Positions 1,935 through 29,524 of a stretch of DNA of 29,524 nucleotides are shown in pieces; within the stretch, counting starts at the first letter, position 1; every line of letters starts with the position of its first letter. The position numbers and the translations under genes are program-made. Source of the stretch: a virus (taxonomy: Duplodnaviria > Heunggongvirae > Uroviricota > Caudoviricetes); the IMG/VR virus record IMGVR_UViG_2693429557_000011. One strand, 5' to 3'. The notes beneath the pieces are model-generated. The model was not told the origin of the DNA. It searched no databases and saw nothing but the letters and a program-made list of their open reading frames with translations.

Positions 1935-2915
1935 CTAACGTCCTGCTTTTAACAATAACCAGATAAACACCGGCGCACCCAACGTTGCGGTGACCACGCC
2001 AATAGGCAGCTCTGCGGCAGCTAATGCCAGGCGCGCTACAATATCGGCCAGCAGCACTGCGCTCGCCCCTGCCAGCGCGCAGCCGGGAAGTAATACGCGA
2101 TGATCGGTTAAACCACACAACCGAAGAATATGTGGGATCACCAGACCAATAAAGCCGATAGCACCCGCCAGCGCCACACTGACGCCAACCATCCAGCCGG
2201 TCGCTGCCACCAGCACATTGCGCCAGAACCACAGGGGTAAACCCAGTTGCCGCGCCGAGATCTCGCCAAGTGCTAACATATTCATCGGCCTGGACTGACA
2301 ACAGATCCACAACAACACGGGGATCAATGCCAGCATCAGCCAGCTTTGCCGCCAGTCTACGCCGCCAAAACCGCCCATCATCCAGTACATCAGCTGACGT
2401 AAATCAACAGAGGTGGAAAAGTAGATAGCCCACGTCATTAGTGCGCTACAGATAATCCCTAATGCAACGCCAGCCAGCAATAACCGACTGGTCGAAAGAT
2501 GACGACGGGCGAAACGTAAGAGTATTAAAGTGATGATAAGCGCGCCAGCAATCGCACACAGCCCTAGCGCCCAGTTGGGGAGTTGCCCTTGCCCAAGCAA
2601 TACCGCGGCGATAAGCCCCACGCCTGCGCCGTTAGAGACGCCAAGTAGTCCAGGTTCTGCCAGAGGATTTTCAAACAACGCCTGCATTACAGCGCCGGAT
2701 ATAGCCAGCGCCGCACCAACCAGCAATACAGCCAGCGTACGTGGCAGGCGAATTTGCCAGACGAACAGTTCGCCACGAGGAGTAAACCAGTCACCTGGCG
2801 AAATCCATTGTTCACCGGCGCAAAGGCTTAAGAGAAGCGCCAGCAGCATCAAAACTGACAGGCATAATAACCAGCGAATATTTTGTCGCTGTTGTTGGCG
2901 GGCAAGTGTCAGCAT
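1935..2915 (-). CDS. btuC: Vitamin B12 ABC transporter permease
   Basis: 326-aa strongly hydrophobic multi-TM ORF of the FecCD/BtuC type. The N-terminus [12 protein letters not shown] and the position upstream of btuE match E. coli BtuC. Confidence 0.95.
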
Positions 2916-2972
2916 GGTATCCGTTCTGCTGAAGTGTCATGGCGTTGATTTTACGGTGACTCTTCGACAGTG

Positions 2973-2998
2973 AAAAGAAAAAAGGCCGCAGAGCGGCC
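2973..2998 (-). terminator. Rho-independent terminator read on the minus strand
   Basis: Hairpin GGCCGC (2984-2989) / AGA loop / GCGGCC (2993-2998). The plus-strand A-run 2973-2983 gives a U-tract after the hairpin on the minus strand. It could terminate the C-int-orf166-orf184 transcript or be the remnant terminator of the displaced upstream host gene. Confidence 0.6.
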
Positions 2999-3107
2999 AT
3001 AAACACAAACAAAAATCAATAAGTTAGGTAATTATCAAAGACTTACAGACACACAAAAACACAGCCAACCACAACAAATAACAGAGATGTGGTCAATTTG
3101 TGGATCA

Positions 3108-3662
3108 TCAGCCAACAAATTTAGCAACAAATACAGCAACCGCCGCTGTGAAAATGGTTGTGCACACTGGCACAATAATGCCACTCCAACGCCACTTCGT
3201 ATTATCATCAACCTTGTCAAACCGCCGATTCATCTCATCCATAATCTTGTCAAAGCGTTTATCCATCGCTTCGGTAAGCTCACCCTTCAGGCTGTTAATG
3301 TCTGATTTGAGCTGCTCTTTCAGGTTAGCTGTATCAGATTTAAGCTCACCTTTCAGATTCGCAATATCGCATTCAAGATCACCTTTCAGATGTGCTATGT
3401 CTGCTTTGAGTTCACCTTTCACCTCACCAACATCGGCTTTAGTTGAGAGGTTTGTAGTGCGTTCAGCAAGCGTCGCAAGGTCGTTTCTTGTTAGCGATAA
3501 ATCACCTTCGAGCCGCTCAATTCGCCTTTCAAGTTTATCTGACATTCCGCCTCCACTACTGCCGCCATCGCCACCATGATAAAGCACATCACGCTCAGAA
3601 TGCGACACACTACCTGCTGAATTACCGAAAAGATTTCTTGCTACATTACCCATTATCACCAT
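3108..3662 (-). CDS. Tail-anchored coiled-coil membrane protein with tandem 11-residue repeats (DUF1640-like look); function unknown
   Basis: 184-aa ORF. Repeats are KGELKADIAHL / KGDLECDIANL / KGELKSDTANL / KEQLKSDINSL / KGELTEAMDKR. The single C-terminal TM is IIVPVCTTIFTAAVAVFVAKFV. The start at 3662 overlaps the upstream gene by 17 nt. An alternative start at 3545 (MSDKLERR) follows a GGAGG Shine-Dalgarno. Confidence 0.7.
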   Translation of the reverse strand: MVIMGNVARNLFGNSAGSVSHSERDVLYHGGDGGSSGGGMSDKLERRIERLEGDLSLTRNDLATLAERTTNLSTKADVGEVKGELKADIAHLKGDLECDIANLKGELKSDTANLKEQLKSDINSLKGELTEAMDKRFDKIMDEMNRRFDKVDDNTKWRWSGIIVPVCTTIFTAAVAVFVAKFVG

Positions 3663-4146
3663 CCTGCGCTTTGTCTTTCTCCAACCACTTCAGCACCGCA
3701 GACGTACGATAAAGGCTCAGGTAACCACAATTCAGGCAATGCAGCGTGTAATAAGTTTTGCGCATATCAGGTATGCTCTTAACATCACCCAAAAAAGCAT
3801 AAGATACATAATGCTTTATGTTCTCTTTAATTAACTCACTCTGTTCCTCCAGGGGTAGATTGTTAAAATTTTCTGGTTTCTTATTTTTATCCCAGCAAAG
3901 ATCCATACTTTCTGGAACAGATAATCGCGACGATCCACATGAAGGGCAGACACTGGAGACCCCCTTCTCAGACAAGAAACGGAAGAAGATTTCTGGCGTA
4001 ATCTCCATCAGCCGCTCTTTATGTTTTTTGACACGACTCATCGACTTCTTATTGATTTCATCAGCTTCTTCTTTGCATTTATCTTCTATATATTTCGATA
4101 GTAAATAGTCATATAACTCTTTTTTTGTAGGTTTTTTTATTTCCAT
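3646..4146 (-). CDS. Hypothetical protein with split zinc-ribbon (CPSC ... CLNC); function unknown
   Basis: 166-aa ORF. Cys pairs CPSCG and CLNCG lie about 70 residues apart, and the N-terminus is Lys/Glu-rich. It starts 2 nt after the int stop. It is very AT-rich (hand-counted 60-nt samples give 20-37% G+C). Confidence 0.7.
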   Translation of the reverse strand: MEIKKPTKKELYDYLLSKYIEDKCKEEADEINKKSMSRVKKHKERLMEITPEIFFRFLSEKGVSSVCPSCGSSRLSVPESMDLCWDKNKKPENFNNLPLEEQSELIKENIKHYVSYAFLGDVKSIPDMRKTYYTLHCLNCGYLSLYRTSAVLKWLEKDKAQDGDNG

Positions 4147-4148
4147 AG

Positions 4149-5126
4149 TTACATTCCTCCCAAGGGATTAAACCTCACCGCATCCTGCAAGTAATCCGGC
4201 GCAAGATGGGCATAAATCATCGTTGTCTGAATCTTTGCGTGCCCCAGAATTTTCTGGAGCGTCAGAATATTGCCGCCGTTCATCATGAAATGACTGGCGA
4301 AGGTGTGGCGCAGCGCATGAACAGCCTGGCCGTCAGGAACATCAGGTGCGACCGTTTTGATGACATCGCGAACCAATGAATAATCCAGCGTCGGAAACAC
4401 CAGTTTCCCGCCCCGTTTTTTGATCTTTTCAAACAGGCTTTCAGAAATAGGAACGGTACGGTTTTTGCTGTTCTTCGTTTTTGAAAAAGTGATTCGACAA
4501 TGAAGAACACGGCGCTGCTCCAGTGCCGCTACCTCGCCCCATCGCGCCCCGGTCGACAGAAGGATTTCGACGGCCAGCCGTTCATCGGGATTTTCAGCCA
4601 GTGCATCCAGCAACTGAACACATTCAGACTTACTCAGATATCCCATTTCACGCTCGTTAACCTTCATTCCTTTAAGGCCTTGAACGGGGTTATCGTTAAG
4701 AAAATGGCCGGATGAGATGAGTGCGGTAAACATCGCGCTTAACGCCCCAATCTCTCGATTTATGGTGCTGGGCTGTATCCCCTGCTCTATCCTGGACACA
4801 CGTAGCTCGGTGAGCATCGTTGTATTAAGTTTATGCACGCACGGGTCATCCATTGCCTCACTCAAGCGCAGCAATTTAAGGCGCGTGTTATGCCCTGACT
4901 TCATTAGCTGGCCGTGGTATTTCCACCACAAGTCAATAAGCACTGACAGCGGACGGCGATCAATGGAGTTTCCTTTCCACTCATTGTTATGCTGTTGCGC
5001 CAGCACCCACCGCTCATATAAAACTGCATCCGATTTCGTTTTAAATTTTTTGCGAATGCGTTTGCCTTTACGCCCCTCAGGACGCATGTCAAGAAGATAC
5101 CCTCCCGGAATTGATTTTATGCTCAT
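4149..5126 (-). CDS. int: Tyrosine integrase, P2 Int type
   Basis: The ORF track gives 375 aa. I place the start at the internal ATG at 5126 (MSIKSIPGGYLLDMRPEGRKGKRIRKKF), which aligns with the P2 Int N-terminus. The C-terminal catalytic region is LSTGARWGE ... HALRHTFASHF ... LGHAKIQTTMIYAHL (R, H-x-x-R, H, Y). Confidence 0.9.
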   Translation of the reverse strand: MSIKSIPGGYLLDMRPEGRKGKRIRKKFKTKSDAVLYERWVLAQQHNNEWKGNSIDRRPLSVLIDLWWKYHGQLMKSGHNTRLKLLRLSEAMDDPCVHKLNTTMLTELRVSRIEQGIQPSTINREIGALSAMFTALISSGHFLNDNPVQGLKGMKVNEREMGYLSKSECVQLLDALAENPDERLAVEILLSTGARWGEVAALEQRRVLHCRITFSKTKNSKNRTVPISESLFEKIKKRGGKLVFPTLDYSLVRDVIKTVAPDVPDGQAVHALRHTFASHFMMNGGNILTLQKILGHAKIQTTMIYAHLAPDYLQDAVRFNPLGGM

Positions 5127-5175
5127 TCGTGAAGCCCCAGCGTTACAAGACCACCATGCCCCCAGCGTTCCATGA

Positions 5176-5487
5176 TTAGCCGGGCTGTGTGCCAGTCTTG
5201 CGGGATTTTTGAGAAGACGATGTGTTTTCTGGCCCATCAGGGGAGAGAGAAGGACTGATCTGCCCAGCAGCCTCATTTGTTTCGTTACTCATCAACCACG
5301 TAGTGTATTTTTTAAATTCCGGGTGCATTGTGATTTTCAGTAAAACCTCCGTTCCCACACCTCGAATACCAGTCTCGTATTGCTTAACCGTACCAACCGC
5401 AATACCTATTGAATCCGCGAACTTTGCCTGACTAAGCCCCTCAGATTCTCGAATTGCTTTTAGCTTCTTTGATATCTCTATTGACAT
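5176..5487 (-). CDS. Immunity repressor, P2 C type (HTH)
   Basis: 103 aa from the internal ATG at 5487 (MSIEISKKLKAIRESEGLSQAKFADSIG...). It has an HTH_XRE-like N-terminus, and the segment HPEFKKYTTWLMSN...GQISPSL parallels P2 C (TPQFTKYTLWFMTN...GQIAPAL). It is divergent from the cox-like gene. Confidence 0.8.
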   Translation of the reverse strand: MSIEISKKLKAIRESEGLSQAKFADSIGIAVGTVKQYETGIRGVGTEVLLKITMHPEFKKYTTWLMSNETNEAAGQISPSLSPDGPENTSSSQKSRKTGTQPG

Positions 5488-5582
5488 GGTGTGCACCTGA
5501 ATACTATATTGGTTATCAGTTGAGTACCACTTGACGCTACAAAGAGCCACAAATAGCACCAGATTGAATAGGTTATCACACC
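5488..5582. promoter_or_regulatory. Divergent early switch region (Pc/Pe-equivalent) between repressor and cox-like gene
   Basis: 95-bp gap between divergent C-type and Cox-type genes. It contains direct repeats GGTTATCA at 5511-5518 and 5571-5578, a TTGACG -35-like hexamer at 5531-5536 and TATAGT on the minus strand near 5503-5508. Exact promoters and operators are not resolved. Confidence 0.5.
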
Positions 5583-5861
5583 ATGGCAAAAGTCCTTAAC
5601 ACATACGAACAAGCGGATTTTGAGCGTTTGGCGGCGTTCTACCCATACCGTAATGAACATGGGCTACCGGTACTTGAAGAAAGCCTAGAGGATTATGCGA
5701 AACGCACAAATCAAAGCATTCTCGCTGTAAGAAGGCAGGCTGATAGATCGGTAATTCCCGTTACTCAAGAAGGAAGAAACACAAAACGCAAAGTAAATCT
5801 CTTCGCAATTTTCCTGAAAACCATCAGAAACGCAGAGAAATACGTGCAGATGACAAAATAA
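5583..5861 (+). CDS. Cox/Apl-like excisionase and early repressor (putative)
   Basis: 92-aa first gene of the rightward early operon. The segment DYAKRTNQSILAVRRQADRSVIPV resembles the P2 Cox HTH region EFAKLIGKSTGAVRRMIDKGKLPV. The call rests mainly on position. Confidence 0.55.
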   Translation: MAKVLNTYEQADFERLAAFYPYRNEHGLPVLEESLEDYAKRTNQSILAVRRQADRSVIPVTQEGRNTKRKVNLFAIFLKTIRNAEKYVQMTK

Positions 5862-7921: not shown

Positions 7922-10744
7922 ATGACGGCAGAGTACATCAGGGACTGGCAACAACCGCGCCACGCAGTGGGGCGTGAAGGAACGGGGATCCCCGCTCCTG
8001 AATCCGCGCTTTCCTCCTGGCTGGATGCCCACCGGGCAGAGAACGAGCGCCGCCAGGAAATGGCTGATGCGGCGTTCTCCGCCACGCCACTGGGCAACCT
8101 GATTAATAAAAGCCTGGACGCACAGGAAAAACAGGACAAAACCATCACACTGGCAGGAGACGCCAGAAAACAGGCACGCGGCGCGGTGGATGAAGCCATG
8201 GCCTCGCTGCGCCTGCTGCCGTCCTATCTGCGCGATCCGCTTATTCGCCACCTCTCCTTCCTGCGCAAAAAACAGGAAGCCGATCGCCGGAAAGGCAAAA
8301 AGAGCTGGCAGGCGGAACGCTATGCACGCGGAACCCTGCGCAAAATATTCGAACGTCTGGATCGCACTGACGGACACTGGCTGACACCGGGTTATCGCTC
8401 CCTTGCCGGACGTGAACGCCTGGACGATTTGCTTTACCTGCCGCAACTCAACAAACACCAGATACAGACGCTGGCCACCATGACGGCGGCGATGTTCAGC
8501 AGCACCTTCGAAAAACTCTGCGATGGTTTTGGCGCGACTGATGGCGAGCTGACCATGGATGTAACGCTGAAGGCGTATCAGATGCTGGCCCGCATGGCGT
8601 TACACTTACACGCCATGCCTCCGCATTATGACGCACTGACAACAGACAAAGACCGGAGGCACGAACCGGACACAGAACTGCTGCCGGGCGCAATCCTTCG
8701 CCTGACCTGTGCGGAATGGTGGAAACGCAAACTGTGGCTGTTACGTTGCGAGTGGAGAGAAGAACAACTTCGCGCCGCCTGTCTGGTTTCCAGAAAAACA
8801 TCGCCCTATCTGAGCCAGGACGCGTTAAGCGAGTTTCGCGCACAGCGCGAGAAAACACGCGATTTCCTGAAAAGTTTCATGCTGGAAAATGAAGACGGGT
8901 TCACGATTGATCTCGAGACGGTGTATTACGCGGGAGTAAGTAACCCGGTTCACCGTAAGGCAGAAATGATGGCCACCATGAAGGGGCTGGAACTTCTGGC
9001 CGAAGCCCGTGGCGACAAAGCGGTGTTTCTGACTGTCACCTGCCCGTCAAAATACCACGCCACAACGGAGAACGGTCATCCGAATCCCAAATGGAACGGG
9101 GCCACAATGCGCGACTCCAGCGATTACCTGGTTAACACGTTTTTTGCGACGGTCCGCAAAAAACTGAACCGCGACGGCCTGCGCTGGTATGGCATCCGCA
9201 CGGCGGAGCCTCACCATGACGGCACCGTGCACTGGCATATGATGGTCTTTGCTCATCCGGAAGAAATCGACACCATTGTGTCCCACACCCGCGATATTGC
9301 CATTCAGGAAGATCGTCACGAGCTGGGCGATGACATAACTCCGCGCTTTAAGGCGGAGTATGTAGACGGCTCAAAAGGCACGCCAACCAGCTACATCGCC
9401 ACCTACATCGGGAAAAACCTGGACAGCCGCGCCGTGGATGGCATCGACCCGAAAACGGGCAAGCCACGCGTTGACCACGAAACCGGAAAATCAATGGCCG
9501 AGAGCGTGGAACGCGCCATCGGCTGGGCGCGCCTTCACCGGGTCCGCCAGTTCCAGTTCTTTGGCATCCCCTCCCGCCAGGTATGGCGTGAACTGCGCCG
9601 CCTTGCCAGCCAGATGGCACGCAACCCGGAAGGCCCGCAACGGCTGAAGGATGACGCAATGGATGCGGTTCTTGCCGCCGCTGATGCCGGATGTTTTGCC
9701 ACCTACATAGAGAAACAGGGCGGCGTACTTGTTCCACGCAAAGACTACCTGATTCGCACCGCCTACGACCTCGCCGATGAGCTGAACGATTACGGCGAAC
9801 AGAGCGTACAGATTTACGGGATCTGGTCACCACTCATCGGGGAATCCTCCCGTGTGTGCACGCATCCGGATAACTGGAAGCTGGTAAGACGCAAACCGGA
9901 AGCGGAAGACAGCGCCCGCGAAAATGGTTTTGACCTTCAGGGCGGCCCTGCCGCCCCTTGGACTCGTGGCAATAACTGTCCCCGTGTACAGGAAACGGAC
10001 AACAACGGGACAGAACAGCCGGAAGAACGGCCAGCACCGTGGCCGCAGCTCCCTGACGGCGTTGATGTGGATGAATGGATGCGCTCACTGAAACGGCACG
10101 AACGCCGGGCGCTGATGCGTTCGCTTCGTGACAAACAGGCAAAAAACAGCAGTGATGAAATGCAGAGCTGGACACAGAGCCGCAAACAGCAGCGGCCTTT
10201 GCCTGATAACCACGAATTACTCGCTAAAGAATGGCGGGAGTCTGCTGAATCTCTCGGCCTGCATATCGGTGAACAACAGATGCAGCACCTGTTACGGGGC
10301 GGCAGTCTGTACGTTGACGGCAGCATCATTGCACCGCAGGGATTTGAAATTGTACGCAAACCGGATACCCGCCCGGACAGCCGAATCACGCAGCTCTGGC
10401 AGCGCCTGAGCCGTAATCATGGCGTAAGCAGCACGGAGATCCGCCATAACCCGGTCGCCAGCTATCTGACACAGCTGGGGGCATCAGACCCTGAAGCCGC
10501 CGCACGCCTGGCATCCACACTTCAGCAGGACCAGAACACCATGAAAACACCCGTTACCGTGCTTTCTGACATGCTGCGCGCCATCCGCGACGCAGAGCAC
10601 GCACAGAGAATCAGTGAAACCACTGAACGCGCCCGCCGCAAAGCAGACCTGCTGCGGGGTGGCCTGACCAGTGGAAACAAAAAACAGACAGAAACGGGAC
10701 TCACGAATCCCGTAAATGAGCAAAAAACGCGCAGCGATATATGA
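7922..10744 (+). CDS. Replication initiation endonuclease, P2 gpA family (HUH rolling-circle initiator)
   Basis: 940-aa ORF. The HUH-type metal motif GTVHWHMMVF has its HWH at nt 9230-9238. The paired catalytic tyrosines YIATYIGKN (Y491, Y495; nt 9392-9406) match the Y-x-x-x-Y of P2 A. The last 250 aa or so are charged and Gln-rich. Confidence 0.9.
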   Translation: MTAEYIRDWQQPRHAVGREGTGIPAPESALSSWLDAHRAENERRQEMADAAFSATPLGNLINKSLDAQEKQDKTITLAGDARKQARGAVDEAMASLRLLPSYLRDPLIRHLSFLRKKQEADRRKGKKSWQAERYARGTLRKIFERLDRTDGHWLTPGYRSLAGRERLDDLLYLPQLNKHQIQTLATMTAAMFSSTFEKLCDGFGATDGELTMDVTLKAYQMLARMALHLHAMPPHYDALTTDKDRRHEPDTELLPGAILRLTCAEWWKRKLWLLRCEWREEQLRAACLVSRKTSPYLSQDALSEFRAQREKTRDFLKSFMLENEDGFTIDLETVYYAGVSNPVHRKAEMMATMKGLELLAEARGDKAVFLTVTCPSKYHATTENGHPNPKWNGATMRDSSDYLVNTFFATVRKKLNRDGLRWYGIRTAEPHHDGTVHWHMMVFAHPEEIDTIVSHTRDIAIQEDRHELGDDITPRFKAEYVDGSKGTPTSYIATYIGKNLDSRAVDGIDPKTGKPRVDHETGKSMAESVERAIGWARLHRVRQFQFFGIPSRQVWRELRRLASQMARNPEGPQRLKDDAMDAVLAAADAGCFATYIEKQGGVLVPRKDYLIRTAYDLADELNDYGEQSVQIYGIWSPLIGESSRVCTHPDNWKLVRRKPEAEDSARENGFDLQGGPAAPWTRGNNCPRVQETDNNGTEQPEERPAPWPQLPDGVDVDEWMRSLKRHERRALMRSLRDKQAKNSSDEMQSWTQSRKQQRPLPDNHELLAKEWRESAESLGLHIGEQQMQHLLRGGSLYVDGSIIAPQGFEIVRKPDTRPDSRITQLWQRLSRNHGVSSTEIRHNPVASYLTQLGASDPEAAARLASTLQQDQNTMKTPVTVLSDMLRAIRDAEHAQRISETTERARRKADLLRGGLTSGNKKQTETGLTNPVNEQKTRSDI

Positions 10745-10820: not shown

Positions 10821-11780
10821 ATGAAAATTTGTATCGACGACGGCTCCACCAACATCAAGCTGGCATGGACTGAGAACGGCGAACGCCGCAACGCCATCAG
10901 CCCGAACAGCTTCAAGTCGGAATGGTCTGCGCCGTTCGGTGGCATGCAGCCCGCGAACTACATGCTTGATGGCGTGCGCTATGGTTTTGATCCGGTCAGC
11001 GATCGCTTTGTCCAGACAACCGACACGCAATACCAGTACAGCGATGTAAATGTCATTGCCATTCATCACGCGCTGGTCAAATCAGGCATCACGCCACAGG
11101 AGGTGGATGTGGTTGTCACCCTGCCACTGAGCGAGTATTTCGACACAAACGCACAGCCGGACATGGCCAACATCAACCGCAAAAAAGCGAACGTTATGCG
11201 CCCGGTGGAGTACCAGAACGGCGAAGCATTCACTATCCGTAACGTGCGGGTTATGCCTGAATCCATTCCGGCTGGCTTTAAGGCACTGGCTGACATGAGT
11301 CCGTTTGAATCCCTGCTGATTGTGGATTTGGGCGGAACCACGCTGGATGTGGCAAAGGTTCAGGGGCAACTGGCAGGTATCAGCCAGGTGTTTTGCGATC
11401 CACACGTAGGCGTTTCTCTGATGGCCGATGCCGTACTGTCGGTGATGGCCACTAACGGTATGCGCACCAGTCACCACATCGCCAATACCATTATCGAACA
11501 TCGCCATGATGAAGCCTGGCTGCGCCAGCACATCCACAATGACGCGCATTACGCCAGCCTGATGGCGGTTATTCGTGAAAAGGAAGAAACACTGAAACAA
11601 CGCGTGATCCGCGCGCTGGCGGGTTTTTCGGGTTACGGGCGGGTGATGGTTGTCGGTGGAGGGGCGGAGATTGTGGCACCCGCTATCCGCGAAGCCTGCG
11701 GAGTTAATGCGACTTTCATCGCGGACGGGGTGCCACAGTTTGCTCTGGTTAATGGGCTGTACGCAATGGACAAGGAGTAA
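10821..11780 (+). CDS. parM: Actin-like plasmid segregation ATPase ParM/StbA
   Basis: 319-aa ORF. It is colinear with plasmid R1 ParM as I remember it: IDDGSTNIKL phosphate-1, ISPNSFK.EW, YSDVNV.A.HHAL, TLPL.EY, ERKKAN, V.VMPESIPAG, LLI.DLGGTTLD phosphate-2, VM.GGGAE adenosine motif, LVNG.Y. Confidence 0.85.
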   Translation: MKICIDDGSTNIKLAWTENGERRNAISPNSFKSEWSAPFGGMQPANYMLDGVRYGFDPVSDRFVQTTDTQYQYSDVNVIAIHHALVKSGITPQEVDVVVTLPLSEYFDTNAQPDMANINRKKANVMRPVEYQNGEAFTIRNVRVMPESIPAGFKALADMSPFESLLIVDLGGTTLDVAKVQGQLAGISQVFCDPHVGVSLMADAVLSVMATNGMRTSHHIANTIIEHRHDEAWLRQHIHNDAHYASLMAVIREKEETLKQRVIRALAGFSGYGRVMVVGGGAEIVAPAIREACGVNATFIADGVPQFALVNGLYAMDKE

Positions 11781-11784
11781 ACCA

Positions 11785-12096
11785 ATGACGACACCAACCA
11801 GACGGATAAGTTTCTATCTGAAGCCTGCGGCCGTCAAGAACGAAAGCGAAGCATGCGCCTGGCTGGGCAGCCTTACACCAGAAGCCCGCAAAAGCGGCCA
11901 ACGCGTGGCTTTTCTGGCCGGGCTGGCACTTCTGAAAATGAATCCAGCAGAGGCTTACCGACTGGCTGCATGGGCTGACGATGAGGCGTTATCGGTGACA
12001 CAAACCAGGACAGAACGCCCCGTGCCACAGCCAGTACCAACCGCACAGATAACCAGTCAGATAGCAGGGAATATCCGGGCATTATTTCCTGAATGA
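11785..12096 (+). CDS. parR: ParR/StbB-like centromere-binding adaptor (putative)
   Basis: 103 aa from the ATG at 11785, 4 nt after the parM stop. RRISFYLKPA...LGSLTPEARKSGQRVAFLAGLAL parallels R1 ParR RTIAFKLNPD...LDSIPQGERSRLNRAALTAGLAL (RHH N-terminus). Confidence 0.7.
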   Translation: MTTPTRRISFYLKPAAVKNESEACAWLGSLTPEARKSGQRVAFLAGLALLKMNPAEAYRLAAWADDEALSVTQTRTERPVPQPVPTAQITSQIAGNIRALFPE

Positions 12097-27661: not shown

Positions 27662-27766
27662 CAACAGACGCCGATTTATCTTCTGTAAATATTGTTATGA
27701 TACGCAGGTTCATCCACCTTATGGGGTGAACTGCGTTTGAGGAAACGTAAAGTTACACTGTCCTGA

Positions 27767-27798
27767 AGCCCGTGGCGTCACTGCTGCGGGCTTTTTTT
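27767..27798 (+). terminator. Putative rho-independent terminator between lom and stf
   Basis: AGCCCG (27767-27772) pairs with CGGGCT (27787-27792) and is followed by a T7 run. The loop is long (14 nt), so confidence is moderate. Confidence 0.55.
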
Positions 27799-27812
27799 AT
27801 TGGTGGAAAAGT

Positions 27813-29524
27813 ATGACAGTAAAAATTTCTGGCGTGCTTAAAGATGGCACAGGAAAACCAGTACAGAACTGCACCATTGTGCTGAAGGCCAGACGAACCA
27901 GCAGCACGATGGTGGTGAACACGGTGGCCTCTGAAAATCCGGATGAAGCCGGACGTTACAGCATGGATGTTGAGCATGGTCAGTACAGCGTCACCCTGCT
28001 GGTTGAAGGTTTTCCGCCTTCACATGCCGGGACCATTACCGTCTATGAAGGTTCCAGACCAGGTACGCTGAATGATTTTCTCGGTGCCATGACGGAGGAT
28101 GATGTCCGACCGGAGGCACTGCGCCGCTTTGAGCAGATGGTGGAAGAGGTGTCACGTAACGCCTCCGCGGTTGCACAGAATACGGCAGCCGCGAAAAAAT
28201 CAGCCAGCGAGGCGGCAACTCATGCAACCGATGCTGCAGCCTCAGCACGTGCCGCCAGCACGTCAGCCGGACAGGCCGCGTCGTCGGCTCAGTCAGCGTC
28301 TTCCAGCGCAGGAACGGCATCGACAAAGGCCCGTGAAGCAGCAAAAAGTGCTGCTGCAGAGTCATCAAAAAGCGCGGCAGCTACCAGCGCCAGTGCCGCG
28401 AAAACGTCAGAAACGAATGCCGCAGCATCACAAAAATCGGCAGCCACTTCTGCATCCACAGCGACCACGAAGGCGTCAGAAGCTGCCACCTCGGCACGGG
28501 GTGCGGCGGCCTCAAAAGAGGCAGCGAAATCTTCAGAAACGAATGCATCATCAAGTGCCAGTAGTGCAGCTTCCTCGGCAACGGCGGCAGGAAATTCCGC
28601 GAAGGCGGCAAAAACGTCCGAGACGAACGCTAAGTCTTCTGAAACAGCAGCGGGACAGAGCGCCTCAGCTGCGGCAGGTTCAAAAACAGCGGCTGCATTA
28701 TCTGCCAGTGCCGCGTCAACAAGTGCCGGGCAGGCCTCAGCCAGTGCCACCGCCGCCGGAAAATCGGCAGAAAGCGCCGCATCATCCGCTTCAACAGCCA
28801 CAACGAAGGCTGGCAAAGCCACTGAGCAAGCCACTGCAGCAGCGAGGTCTGCTTCTGCAGCAAAAACCTCTGAAACAAATGCAAAGACTTCAGCAGACAA
28901 TGCTGCTTCCTCTAAGGCAGCAGCCGCATCGTCAGCCAGTTCAGCGGCGTCATCGGCATCATCTGCGTCTGCTTCAAAAGATGAGGCGACCAGACAAGCG
29001 TCAGCAGCGAAAGGTAGTGCCACGACAGCAACAACGAAAGCATCAGAGGCGGCAGGCAGTGCGACGGCTGCATCTCAGAGCAAAGTTGCTGCTGAATCCG
29101 CGGCAACGCGCGCCGAGACAGCAGCAAAACGGGCAGAGGATATTGCATCCGCCGTGGCGCTTGAGGATGCGAGCACGACGAAAAAGGGGATAGTACAGCT
29201 CAGCAGTGCGACCAACAGCACTTCCGAGTCACTGGCGGCAACGCCAAAAGCGGTTAAGGCGGTAATGGGTGAAACGAACAAGAAAGCGCCCTTAAATAGT
29301 CCTGCACTGACCGGAACGCCAACAACACCAACTGCGCGACAGGGAACGAATAATACCCAAATCGCAAGCACGGCTTTCGTTATGGCTGCGATTGCCGCAC
29401 TTGTAGACTCTTCGCCTGATGCACTGAACACACTGAACGAGCTGGCGGCGGCGCTGGGCAACGACCCGAATTTTGCGACCACCATGACTAACGCGCTTGC
29501 GGGTAAGCAACCGAAAGATGCCAC
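27813..29524 (+). CDS. stf: Side tail fibre protein, lambda Stf type, 5' fragment (runs off the window)
   Basis: It is not in the ORF track because no stop is reached. ATG at 27813 gives MTVKISGVLKDGTGKPVQNCTIVLKARR...DEAGRYSMDVEHGQYSV...FPPSHAGTITVYE, almost identical to the lambda Stf N-terminus. A long Ala/Ser-rich repeat region follows (AAKTSETNA recurring), then KGIVQLSSATNSTSE...ALAGKQPKDA. Confidence 0.9.
   Translation, partial: MTVKISGVLKDGTGKPVQNCTIVLKARRTSSTMVVNTVASENPDEAGRYSMDVEHGQYSVTLLVEGFPPSHAGTITVYEGSRPGTLNDFLGAMTEDDVRPEALRRFEQMVEEVSRNASAVAQNTAAAKKSASEAATHATDAAASARAASTSAGQAASSAQSASSSAGTASTKAREAAKSAAAESSKSAAATSASAAKTSETNAAASQKSAATSASTATTKASEAATSARGAAASKEAAKSSETNASSSASSAASSATAAGNSAKAAKTSETNAKSSETAAGQSASAAAGSKTAAALSASAASTSAGQASASATAAGKSAESAASSASTATTKAGKATEQATAAARSASAAKTSETNAKTSADNAASSKAAAASSASSAASSASSASASKDEATRQASAAKGSATTATTKASEAAGSATAASQSKVAAESAATRAETAAKRAEDIASAVALEDASTTKKGIVQLSSATNSTSESLAATPKAVKAVMGETNKKAPLNSPALTGTPTTPTARQGTNNTQIASTAFVMAAIAALVDSSPDALNTLNELAAALGNDPNFATTMTNALAGKQPKDA
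29183..29524 (+). repeat. Copy 2 of the shared tail-fibre module (in lambda-type stf)
   Basis: See 25452-25793. The alignment holds a constant 3731-nt offset and is truncated by the window end. Confidence 0.9.

Follow-up and report, generated by a model that had tools for sequence, protein, structure and literature searches.

We analyzed a 29,524-nucleotide (nt) stretch of DNA (hereafter the window) from the virus record IMGVR_UViG_2693429557_000011 (Caudoviricetes), focusing on two minus-strand genes that form a cassette at positions 3108–4148, between an integrase gene and the end of a P2-like prophage. The first gene encodes a small zinc-ribbon protein, and the second (the partner gene) a coiled-coil protein that ends in a single transmembrane (TM) helix. 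The organization and conservation of the locus support well the reading of this cassette as a two-gene cargo module, or moron, in the int-attP slot, predicted to act as a lysogen-expressed accessory. Positions 2900–5700 of the window (2.8 kb compared) are 100% identical to Escherichia coli O26 strain RM8426 (NZ_CP028116.1). The host genes nlpC-btuD-btuE-btuC occupy positions 30–2915 on the minus strand; after btuC comes the prophage, with genes for a C-type repressor, an integrase, cox-side early functions, a 940-amino-acid (aa) replication endonuclease, a portal protein, a terminase and tail proteins. The features in and around the cassette are as follows.

2974–2998, no strand assigned: attL core, 25 bp (repeated at attR and attB; homology ends at 2998; terminator scan and fold)
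2999–3107, no strand assigned: phage-side att arm, ~110 bp (kept between prophages with different cargo)
3108–3653, minus: partner gene, long form, 181 aa (open reading frame [ORF]; overlapping start and open frame shared by relatives in E. coli, Salmonella, Providencia and others)
3108–3545, minus: partner gene, short form, 145 aa (RefSeq "DUF1640 domain-containing protein"; Met conserved)
3123–3179, minus: C-terminal TM helix of the partner, IIVPVCTTIFTAAVAVFVA (hydropathy scan, best 19-aa window averages 2.43)
3273–3437, minus: five 11-residue (33-nt) hendecad repeats of the partner stalk (repeat listing; Tandem Repeats Finder)
3550–3554, minus: internal Shine-Dalgarno-like GGAGG in the Gly-rich linker, 4 nt upstream of the ATG at 3545–3543
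3646–4146, minus: zinc-ribbon protein gene, 166 aa, WP_000403440.1 "hypothetical protein" (ORF, phrog_4293)
3727–3738, minus: second zinc knuckle CLNC, C137 and C140 (residues 137–140; invariant in alignments A2 and A3)
3937–3948, minus: first zinc knuckle CPSC, C67 and C70 (residues 67–70; invariant in alignments A2 and A3)
4149–5126, minus: tyrosine integrase (int), 325 aa by the RefSeq start (Pfam Int_N and Phage_integrase; RefSeq)
4155–4161, minus: Shine-Dalgarno sequence GGGAGGA for the zinc-ribbon gene, within the last int codons (read from the sequence, 9 nt upstream of the start)
5176–5487, minus: C-type helix-turn-helix immunity repressor (C), 103 aa, first gene of the leftward lysogenic unit (Pfam HTH_3, phrog_147, RefSeq)

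The cassette lies inside an integrated P2-like prophage

To map the prophage boundary, we set the window against a K-12-type genome that lacks the prophage (L002) and against the opposite end of the element (L007). The direct repeat AAAGAAAAAAGGCCGCAGAGCGGCC, 25 bp long, is present at window positions 2974–2998 (attL), at attR and at the attB site of the K-12-type genome; the attR copy (L007 11424–11448) lies 17 nt downstream of the ihfA stop codon. For nearly all of 5426 complete E. coli genomes, the match to the window ends exactly at 2998. The position of the att core and this end of homology place the cassette inside the prophage, which has inserted at the terminator of ihfA in E. coli O26. 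An earlier annotation of the window (the original prediction) had taken the two genes to belong to the prophage and not to the chromosome beside it, and the mapped boundary bears this out.

Read on the minus strand, the att core is the rho-independent terminator of ihfA, a GGCCGC-TCT-GCGGCC hairpin followed by a T-run (GGCCGCTCTGCGGCC then TTTTTTCTTT, 2998–2974; fold of −15.1 kcal/mol, z = −3.1). The terminator-like hairpin with a U-tract that had been predicted at 2973–2998 therefore exists, but as host sequence that integration has duplicated and not as phage DNA. One copy of the core still ends ihfA, and the other is placed such that it would stop a leftward transcript of C, int and the cassette before btuC.

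Genomes of O111 and other strains match the window up to 3108 and diverge beyond it. The att arm also stands after the own cassettes of Salmonella and other relatives, and its identity to the copy in locus L004 is 98–100%. Comparison of the int-att slot in sister prophages shows replaceable cargo, in keeping with the proposal that the genes are morons: an unrelated 131-aa gene occupies it in the O111 prophage, 16 E. coli genomes (discussed below) have swapped variants of the cassette there, and L057/L058 carry extra genes. The 131-aa gene (WP_000416308.1; L003 5303–5698), encoding a hypothetical protein, has no match in Pfam or PADLOC; its prophage, a sister from O111:H8 that shares the att site, is itself disrupted by an IS3 element.

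Both cassette genes fall below the G+C content of the prophage part of the window (53.4%), at 38.5% for the zinc-ribbon gene and 44.3% for the partner. The cassette is thus AT-rich as predicted, but the contrast with int originally quoted, 20–37% against about 68%, reflects local 50-nt extremes of a difference that at the level of whole genes is 38.5% against 49.4%.

The zinc-ribbon gene and its coiled-coil partner

The zinc-ribbon ORF starts 2 nt after the int stop codon (4149–4151), and both cassette genes are co-oriented with C and int. In these respects the locus is as originally described, and the same holds for the 166-aa length of the first product, its split zinc ribbon (CPSC ... CLNC) and the coiled-coil build of the second product, whose single C-terminal TM helix was recovered in a hydropathy scan. 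The zinc-ribbon protein consists of a long N-terminal helix (residues 8–46), an addition of the long forms of the family, and a core domain (residues 44–166), for which the AlphaFold2 model (pLDDT 94.5) has helices packed on a small sheet. In alignments of 29–43 diverse family members, C67, C70, C137, C140 and W154 are the only invariant residues. The four cysteines and the tryptophan hold down to ~20% identity, and the two CxxC knuckles of the ribbon are thereby conserved family-wide.

The protein belongs to phrog_4293 (E = 8e-23), a family of unknown function. In a full HMMER scan of 1.84 billion representatives, its relatives comprised only 91 clusters. None of the 91 clusters has a domain fusion that hints at function, since all are at most 180 aa long. 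The family is mostly acidic (median pI 5.4), which argues against the nucleic-acid sensing that had been proposed for the zinc ribbon; we down-weighted this role. Searches with the zinc-ribbon protein returned no close fold match in the PDB, no significant match in BFVD and nothing specific in Pfam, NCBIfam or PADLOC, a marginal match to DUF3800_VII (E = 0.005) being the sole one in PADLOC-DB v2.

Taken from its first ATG, the partner ORF spans 3108–3662 and encodes 184 aa with a 17-nt overlap with the zinc-ribbon gene, as had been predicted. All relatives, however, start at the equivalent of 3653 (MGNVARN...), which gives 181 aa and an 8-nt overlap (ATGGGTAA), and 3653 rather than 3662 is most likely the start. 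The protein is built from an N-terminal head peptide with an RDV motif, a Gly/Asp-rich linker, a coiled-coil stalk with an LSTKAD motif, the hendecads, an NTKW motif and the TM helix. This single hydrophobic helix covers residues 159–177 of the 181-aa form and leaves just 4 residues after it, indicating that the partner would be tail-anchored; a C-terminal helix is present in 9 of 9 partners examined.

The hendecads of the stalk, a periodicity read from sequence alone, are ADVGEVKGELK, ADIAHLKGDLE, CDIANLKGELK, SDTANLKEQLK and SDINSLKGELT, and Tandem Repeats Finder reports a period of 33 with 3.2 copies at 3317–3421. Partner homologues from near-identical prophages differ by whole repeats (192, 181, 170, 159 and 148 aa; relatives P0020–P0047), which suggests that stalk length is changed by repeat slippage or recombination. 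The coiled-coil stalk is probably trimeric. RefSeq names the partner a "DUF1640 domain-containing" or "CCDC90 family" protein of 145 aa that starts at 3545, and it falls in phrog_9415, another family of unknown function. Its match to the Pfam CCDC90-like family (PF07798) scores 24.5 bits, under the 33.5-bit cut-off, and 17 of 30 partner relatives match the family at E < 0.001 (best E = 2.5e-11). The published beta-layer motif of DUF1640 is [aliphatic]-A-T-K-[polar]-[DE] (PMC4786415); LSTKAD, at the start of the stalk, is this motif with S in place of A, and its T, K and D reach at least 90% conservation (alignment A4). Other matches of the partner in Pfam, NCBIfam and PADLOC were just coiled-coil noise (Apolipoprotein, Mer2, LmuB, ZorA), and a sequence search of the PDB gave non-significant matches only (best E = 0.059).

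The annotated 145-aa start could be taken as a refutation of the long ORF. We rejected this because, in all relatives, the frame upstream of the RefSeq start is open back to the zinc-ribbon stop, where the long ORF begins, and encodes a conserved motif. This extension consists of the short head peptide, in which an RDV / DFP-L-(F/Y)P-like motif recurs, and the Gly/Asp-rich stretch behind it. The internal start is conserved as well: the Met after the Gly-rich stretch is kept in 11 homologues, 10 of which have a GGAGG-like motif 4–10 nt upstream of the internal ATG. Glycine codons of the linker are biased toward GGA (25 of 62, against 22 of 111 elsewhere; Fisher p = 0.0035), a bias that supplies the GGAGG-like motif ahead of this ATG. 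Both a long form, coupled to the zinc-ribbon gene, and a short, head-less form may thus be made. Among close relatives, all three coding parts of the cassette have more synonymous than non-synonymous changes, including the zinc-ribbon gene (12 against 6) and the N-terminal extension of the partner (4 against 2).

The two genes are inherited as a pair. In 12 of 13 distinct contexts examined, a zinc-ribbon homologue is followed by a protein with a head, a Gly-rich linker, a coiled coil and a C-terminal TM helix, although the partner is cut short in one of these 12 (L042/L043). The zinc-ribbon homologues of the paired loci, from E. coli, Salmonella, Providencia, Klebsiella and metagenomic contigs, are 25–60% identical, and the two genes overlap by up to 14 nt or are separated by at most ~20 nt. 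In 16 E. coli genomes, identity to the window is at least 97% across the stalk, the TM helix and the att arm, but the zinc-ribbon gene and the head peptide have been exchanged jointly for a divergent version, with breakpoints at ~3570, in the Gly-rich linker, and ~4160, at the 3′ end of int. This joint replacement is the best hint that the zinc-ribbon protein may work with the head peptide of its partner.

A divergent member of the zinc-ribbon family (CLSCG...CSYCG, E = 9e-29 to the family profile) is encoded at L004 2240–2653, and likewise in L005 and L006. RefSeq shows an unannotated 478-bp "gap" between the DUF1640 gene and int of L004 at the place of this gene. Annotation in RefSeq thus partly fails for the zinc-ribbon/stalk pair, and current defense-finding tools miss it.

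Genomic placement and proposed function of the pair

The contexts of the pair that include lysogeny genes are as follows.

P2-like, ihfA/btuC site: C-int-pair-att (window, L008, L013, L032)
P2-like, other att sites: C-int-pair-att (L039, L057, Klebsiella phage record CP052639.1)
186-like: cI(S24)-pair-int (L055/L056)
Lambdoid: cI(S24)-pair, then bet/exo or kilR, the rexAB position (L037, L050–L054)

In all of these P2-like, 186-like and lambdoid contexts, the pair is co-oriented with a lysogeny gene and stands close behind it, at distances from an overlap to 76 nt. Linkage to the repressor takes the form C-int-pair in the window, cI-pair in L037 and L052, and cI-pair-int in L055. The order C-int-pair-att recurs at no fewer than three different att sites, and a 32-kb P2-like phage of Klebsiella, in an unintegrated record, has C, int, the pair and the att arm in the same order. 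Other homologues lie near ogr/D, tail or CRISPR genes. In P2, C and int are co-transcribed from the promoter Pc. The cassette is packed tightly behind C and int, and homologous pairs directly follow lysogeny genes or stand between them; on these grounds, co-transcription from the lysogenic promoter is the most economical explanation for its expression. A simple promoter scan of the minus strand from C to the cassette found no promoter, which is weak evidence because Pc also escaped detection. On the plus strand, a near-consensus promoter-like site at 5481–5510 (TTGACA, 18-nt spacer, TATATT; 11 of 12 matches) overlaps the start of the C gene and faces the cox-side early genes, as fits a face-to-face Pe/Pc switch of the P2-like kind.

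We propose, by analogy with rexAB, sie genes and abortive-infection systems of the toxin-antitoxin type, that the pair is a lysogen-expressed superinfection exclusion or abortive-infection module, a reading to which we give about even chances. The module has no room for a promoter of its own, and C, int and the pair would most likely be transcribed together from the lysogenic promoter, with the transcript ending at the att-core terminator. Translation would yield a small, mostly acidic cytoplasmic protein built around a four-cysteine zinc ribbon and, coupled to it, a membrane protein in which a head peptide, a flexible Gly-rich linker and a coiled coil of variable length precede the C-terminal membrane helix; the conserved internal ribosome-binding site would add the head-less short form. 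We speculate that, by docking on the head peptide, the zinc-ribbon protein keeps the membrane stalk protein inactive, and that infection by another phage disturbs this complex. The freed stalk protein might then perturb the inner membrane or block a membrane-associated step, perhaps through the balance of long and short forms, such that the superinfecting phage is excluded or the infection aborted, following the logic of RexA/RexB or of toxin-antitoxin-type abortive infection. The roles of sensor for the zinc ribbon and effector for the membrane protein are ones that we infer.

More tentatively, and with a good deal more doubt than confidence, the pair may be a new lysogen-expressed anti-phage system in which the zinc-ribbon sensor caps the head of a trimeric, tail-anchored DUF1640/CCDC90 stalk, the long and short isoforms act in an antiholin/holin-like manner and stalk length is tuned as hendecads are gained and lost. 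With such a capped stalk, the MCUR1/CCDC90 family would have a first known function in bacteria, and RexAB-like logic would have been assembled from unrelated parts. We found no description of the pair in the literature. The dual start and the replacement of the zinc-ribbon gene together with the head peptide are features open to specific and cheap experiments.

Several observations weigh against an exclusion or abortive-infection role. The module is rare, with its 91 zinc-ribbon clusters worldwide; the whole cassette is present in 23 of the 5426 complete E. coli genomes, in one chromosomal copy each, and a tblastn search of sequenced phages and plasmids with the zinc-ribbon protein of the window found none. 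(The zinc-ribbon/partner cassette is absent from 5387 of these genomes, and viral contigs searched for loci related to P0130 or P0103 yielded none.) One locus, L041, carries the zinc-ribbon gene without a partner, and the interaction of the two proteins is a hint deduced from co-inheritance alone. The promoter scan was too crude to exclude an internal promoter. The check for a known defense family that the original prediction had called for gave no matching PADLOC model; in PADLOC-DB v2 neither protein has a specific match, those of the partner being coiled-coil matches to LmuB, ZorA and LeoBC. We also know of no pore or channel design that consists of one tail-anchored helix and a cytoplasmic stalk, and in this plan the partner, with its long cytoplasmic coiled coil and lone tail-anchor helix, departs from RexB, which has four TM helices.

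The pair might instead be a toxin-antitoxin-like addiction module that stabilizes the prophage, with a membrane toxin, a zinc-ribbon antidote and no dedicated anti-phage role. Its layout would be classical, a small acidic first gene with an 8-nt overlap with the second; a Hok/Gef gene lies at the other end of the same prophage, and one homologous pair adjoins a toxin-antitoxin pair of the HigBA type. Scans of Pfam, NCBIfam and PADLOC nonetheless revealed no similarity to toxin or antitoxin families, the zinc-ribbon protein lacks a recognizable DNA-binding autoregulator domain, and the pair stands within lysogenic operons rather than under an autoregulated promoter of its own. We consider such a module unlikely, and toxin-antitoxin and abortive-infection roles are not mutually exclusive. 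Quite improbable, in our estimate, is an XhlA-like accessory of the membrane or of lysis, or a lysogenic conversion of host envelope physiology, neither of them aimed at other phages. The grouping of the pair with repressor and integrase genes instead of a lysis cassette speaks against it, as do the absence of an adjacent holin or endolysin gene and the many P2-like phages (most of them) that lack the pair yet have complete lysis modules; these points stand against a sub-threshold XhlA match of short partners (30.5 bits, with a cut-off of 34.7; E = 4e-7), weak PHROG matches to holin, spanin and "hemolysin" families and one pair that adjoins tail genes.

Because the cassette stands directly downstream of int, adjoins attP and belongs to a prophage integrated at ihfA, an accessory of integration, excision or lysogeny control was also considered, for example a directionality or host-factor modulator that acts with Int. 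We regard this as very improbable: in lambdoid prophages the pair follows cI without a nearby int, elsewhere it is found close to ogr/D, tail or CRISPR genes, it is missing from, or replaced by unrelated cargo in, sister prophages that share this int and att, and a membrane anchor would be unexpected in a recombination factor. Decaying or non-functional hitch-hiking DNA, finally, would also be AT-rich, rare and devoid of annotated function, but is hardly credible given the invariance of the cysteines and tryptophan, the confidence of the core model, the kept gene order and coupling, and the excess of synonymous changes.

Should the pair protect lysogens, it would add a compact ~1-kb system to the anti-phage repertoire and offer a starting point for understanding the DUF1640/CCDC90 (MCUR1-family) membrane stalks of bacteria. 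Should it prove inactive against phages, the locus would still be a clean case of an att-core terminator that insulates host genes from a lysogenic transcript.

Further cargo was observed elsewhere in the prophage and in one relative. The classical P2 cargo hotspot between the replication endonuclease (7922–10744) and the portal gene, at window positions 10821–12096, holds a gene of the "plasmid partitioning/stability family" and one for an actin-like segregation protein, ParM (E = 3e-82 to Pfam StbA_N and ParM_N), with two hypothetical genes after them; a plasmid-type partition system is unusual in an integrating P2-like prophage. A serine O-acetyltransferase gene (L007 1015–1587, approximately window 27663–28235, minus strand) stands right after the tail-fiber assembly gene, where P2-like phages have their Z/fun-type cargo, and may be a surface-modifying conversion gene. 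Outside the window, on the attR side, the edge cargo includes a 500-aa PIN-domain protein between a gpD-like gene and ogr (L007 8822–10324) and the Hok/Gef toxin gene between ogr and attR (L007 11019–11159). In Providencia (L011 5869–7472), next to ogr/gpD, two AT-rich genes without a match in Pfam or PADLOC come after the pair, one for a membrane-like product of 309 aa and one for a product of 216 aa; this may be a larger cargo island.

Comparison with known systems

Two small overlapping genes, an acidic first product and a second product plausibly harmful by membrane insertion recall type II toxin-antitoxin systems and abortive-infection systems of that type. The cassette differs from type II systems in lacking homology to their families, an autoregulatory DNA-binding domain and a promoter of its own. 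XhlA (PF10779), a membrane protein of the PBSX lysis cassette, is similarly small and also combines a coiled coil at the N-terminus with a TM helix at the C-terminus. All matches to XhlA, however, fall below the Pfam cut-off, the partner of the window itself has no match to this family, and the pair is found in a lysogenic and not a late operon, with no lysis genes adjacent.

In architecture, the partner resembles the DUF1640/CCDC90 proteins (MCUR1, CCDC90B and prokaryotic homologues; PF07798), with which it shares a head-neck-stalk-anchor plan, LSTKAD at the position of the beta-layer motif and a C-terminal TM helix. It is set apart by its sub-threshold score, a Gly-rich linker with an internal start, variable hendecads and an obligate zinc-ribbon neighbor. 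To our knowledge, no function has been assigned to any bacterial DUF1640/CCDC90 member.

By position, the cassette is comparable to the defense cargo of P2-like phages, whose hotspots have been surveyed (Rousset 2022; NAR 2026, PMC13586616). The int-att interval is a minor defense hotspot of P2 elements, with 3% of the defense systems found in the 2026 survey (PMC13586616); the genes of the window occupy the same interval but, unlike such cargo, are not recognized by PADLOC.

In organization, the pair resembles RexA/RexB of lambda and the exclusion genes of the sieB type. No sequence or fold similarity links it to RexA or RexB, and no Rex match was found in Pfam, PHROG or PADLOC. Judged by the known sizes of RexA and RexB, the cytoplasmic member, a zinc-ribbon protein of 110–166 aa, is also much smaller than RexA. 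Nevertheless, in both cases a cytoplasmic and a membrane protein are encoded as a pair, co-oriented and directly downstream of the immunity repressor, and in the lambdoid relatives the zinc-ribbon/stalk pair occupies the rexAB position itself. Protection of lysogens by the pair would also mean that P2-like phages, in their int-att slot, and lambdoid phages, in their rexAB slot, exchange the same cargo.

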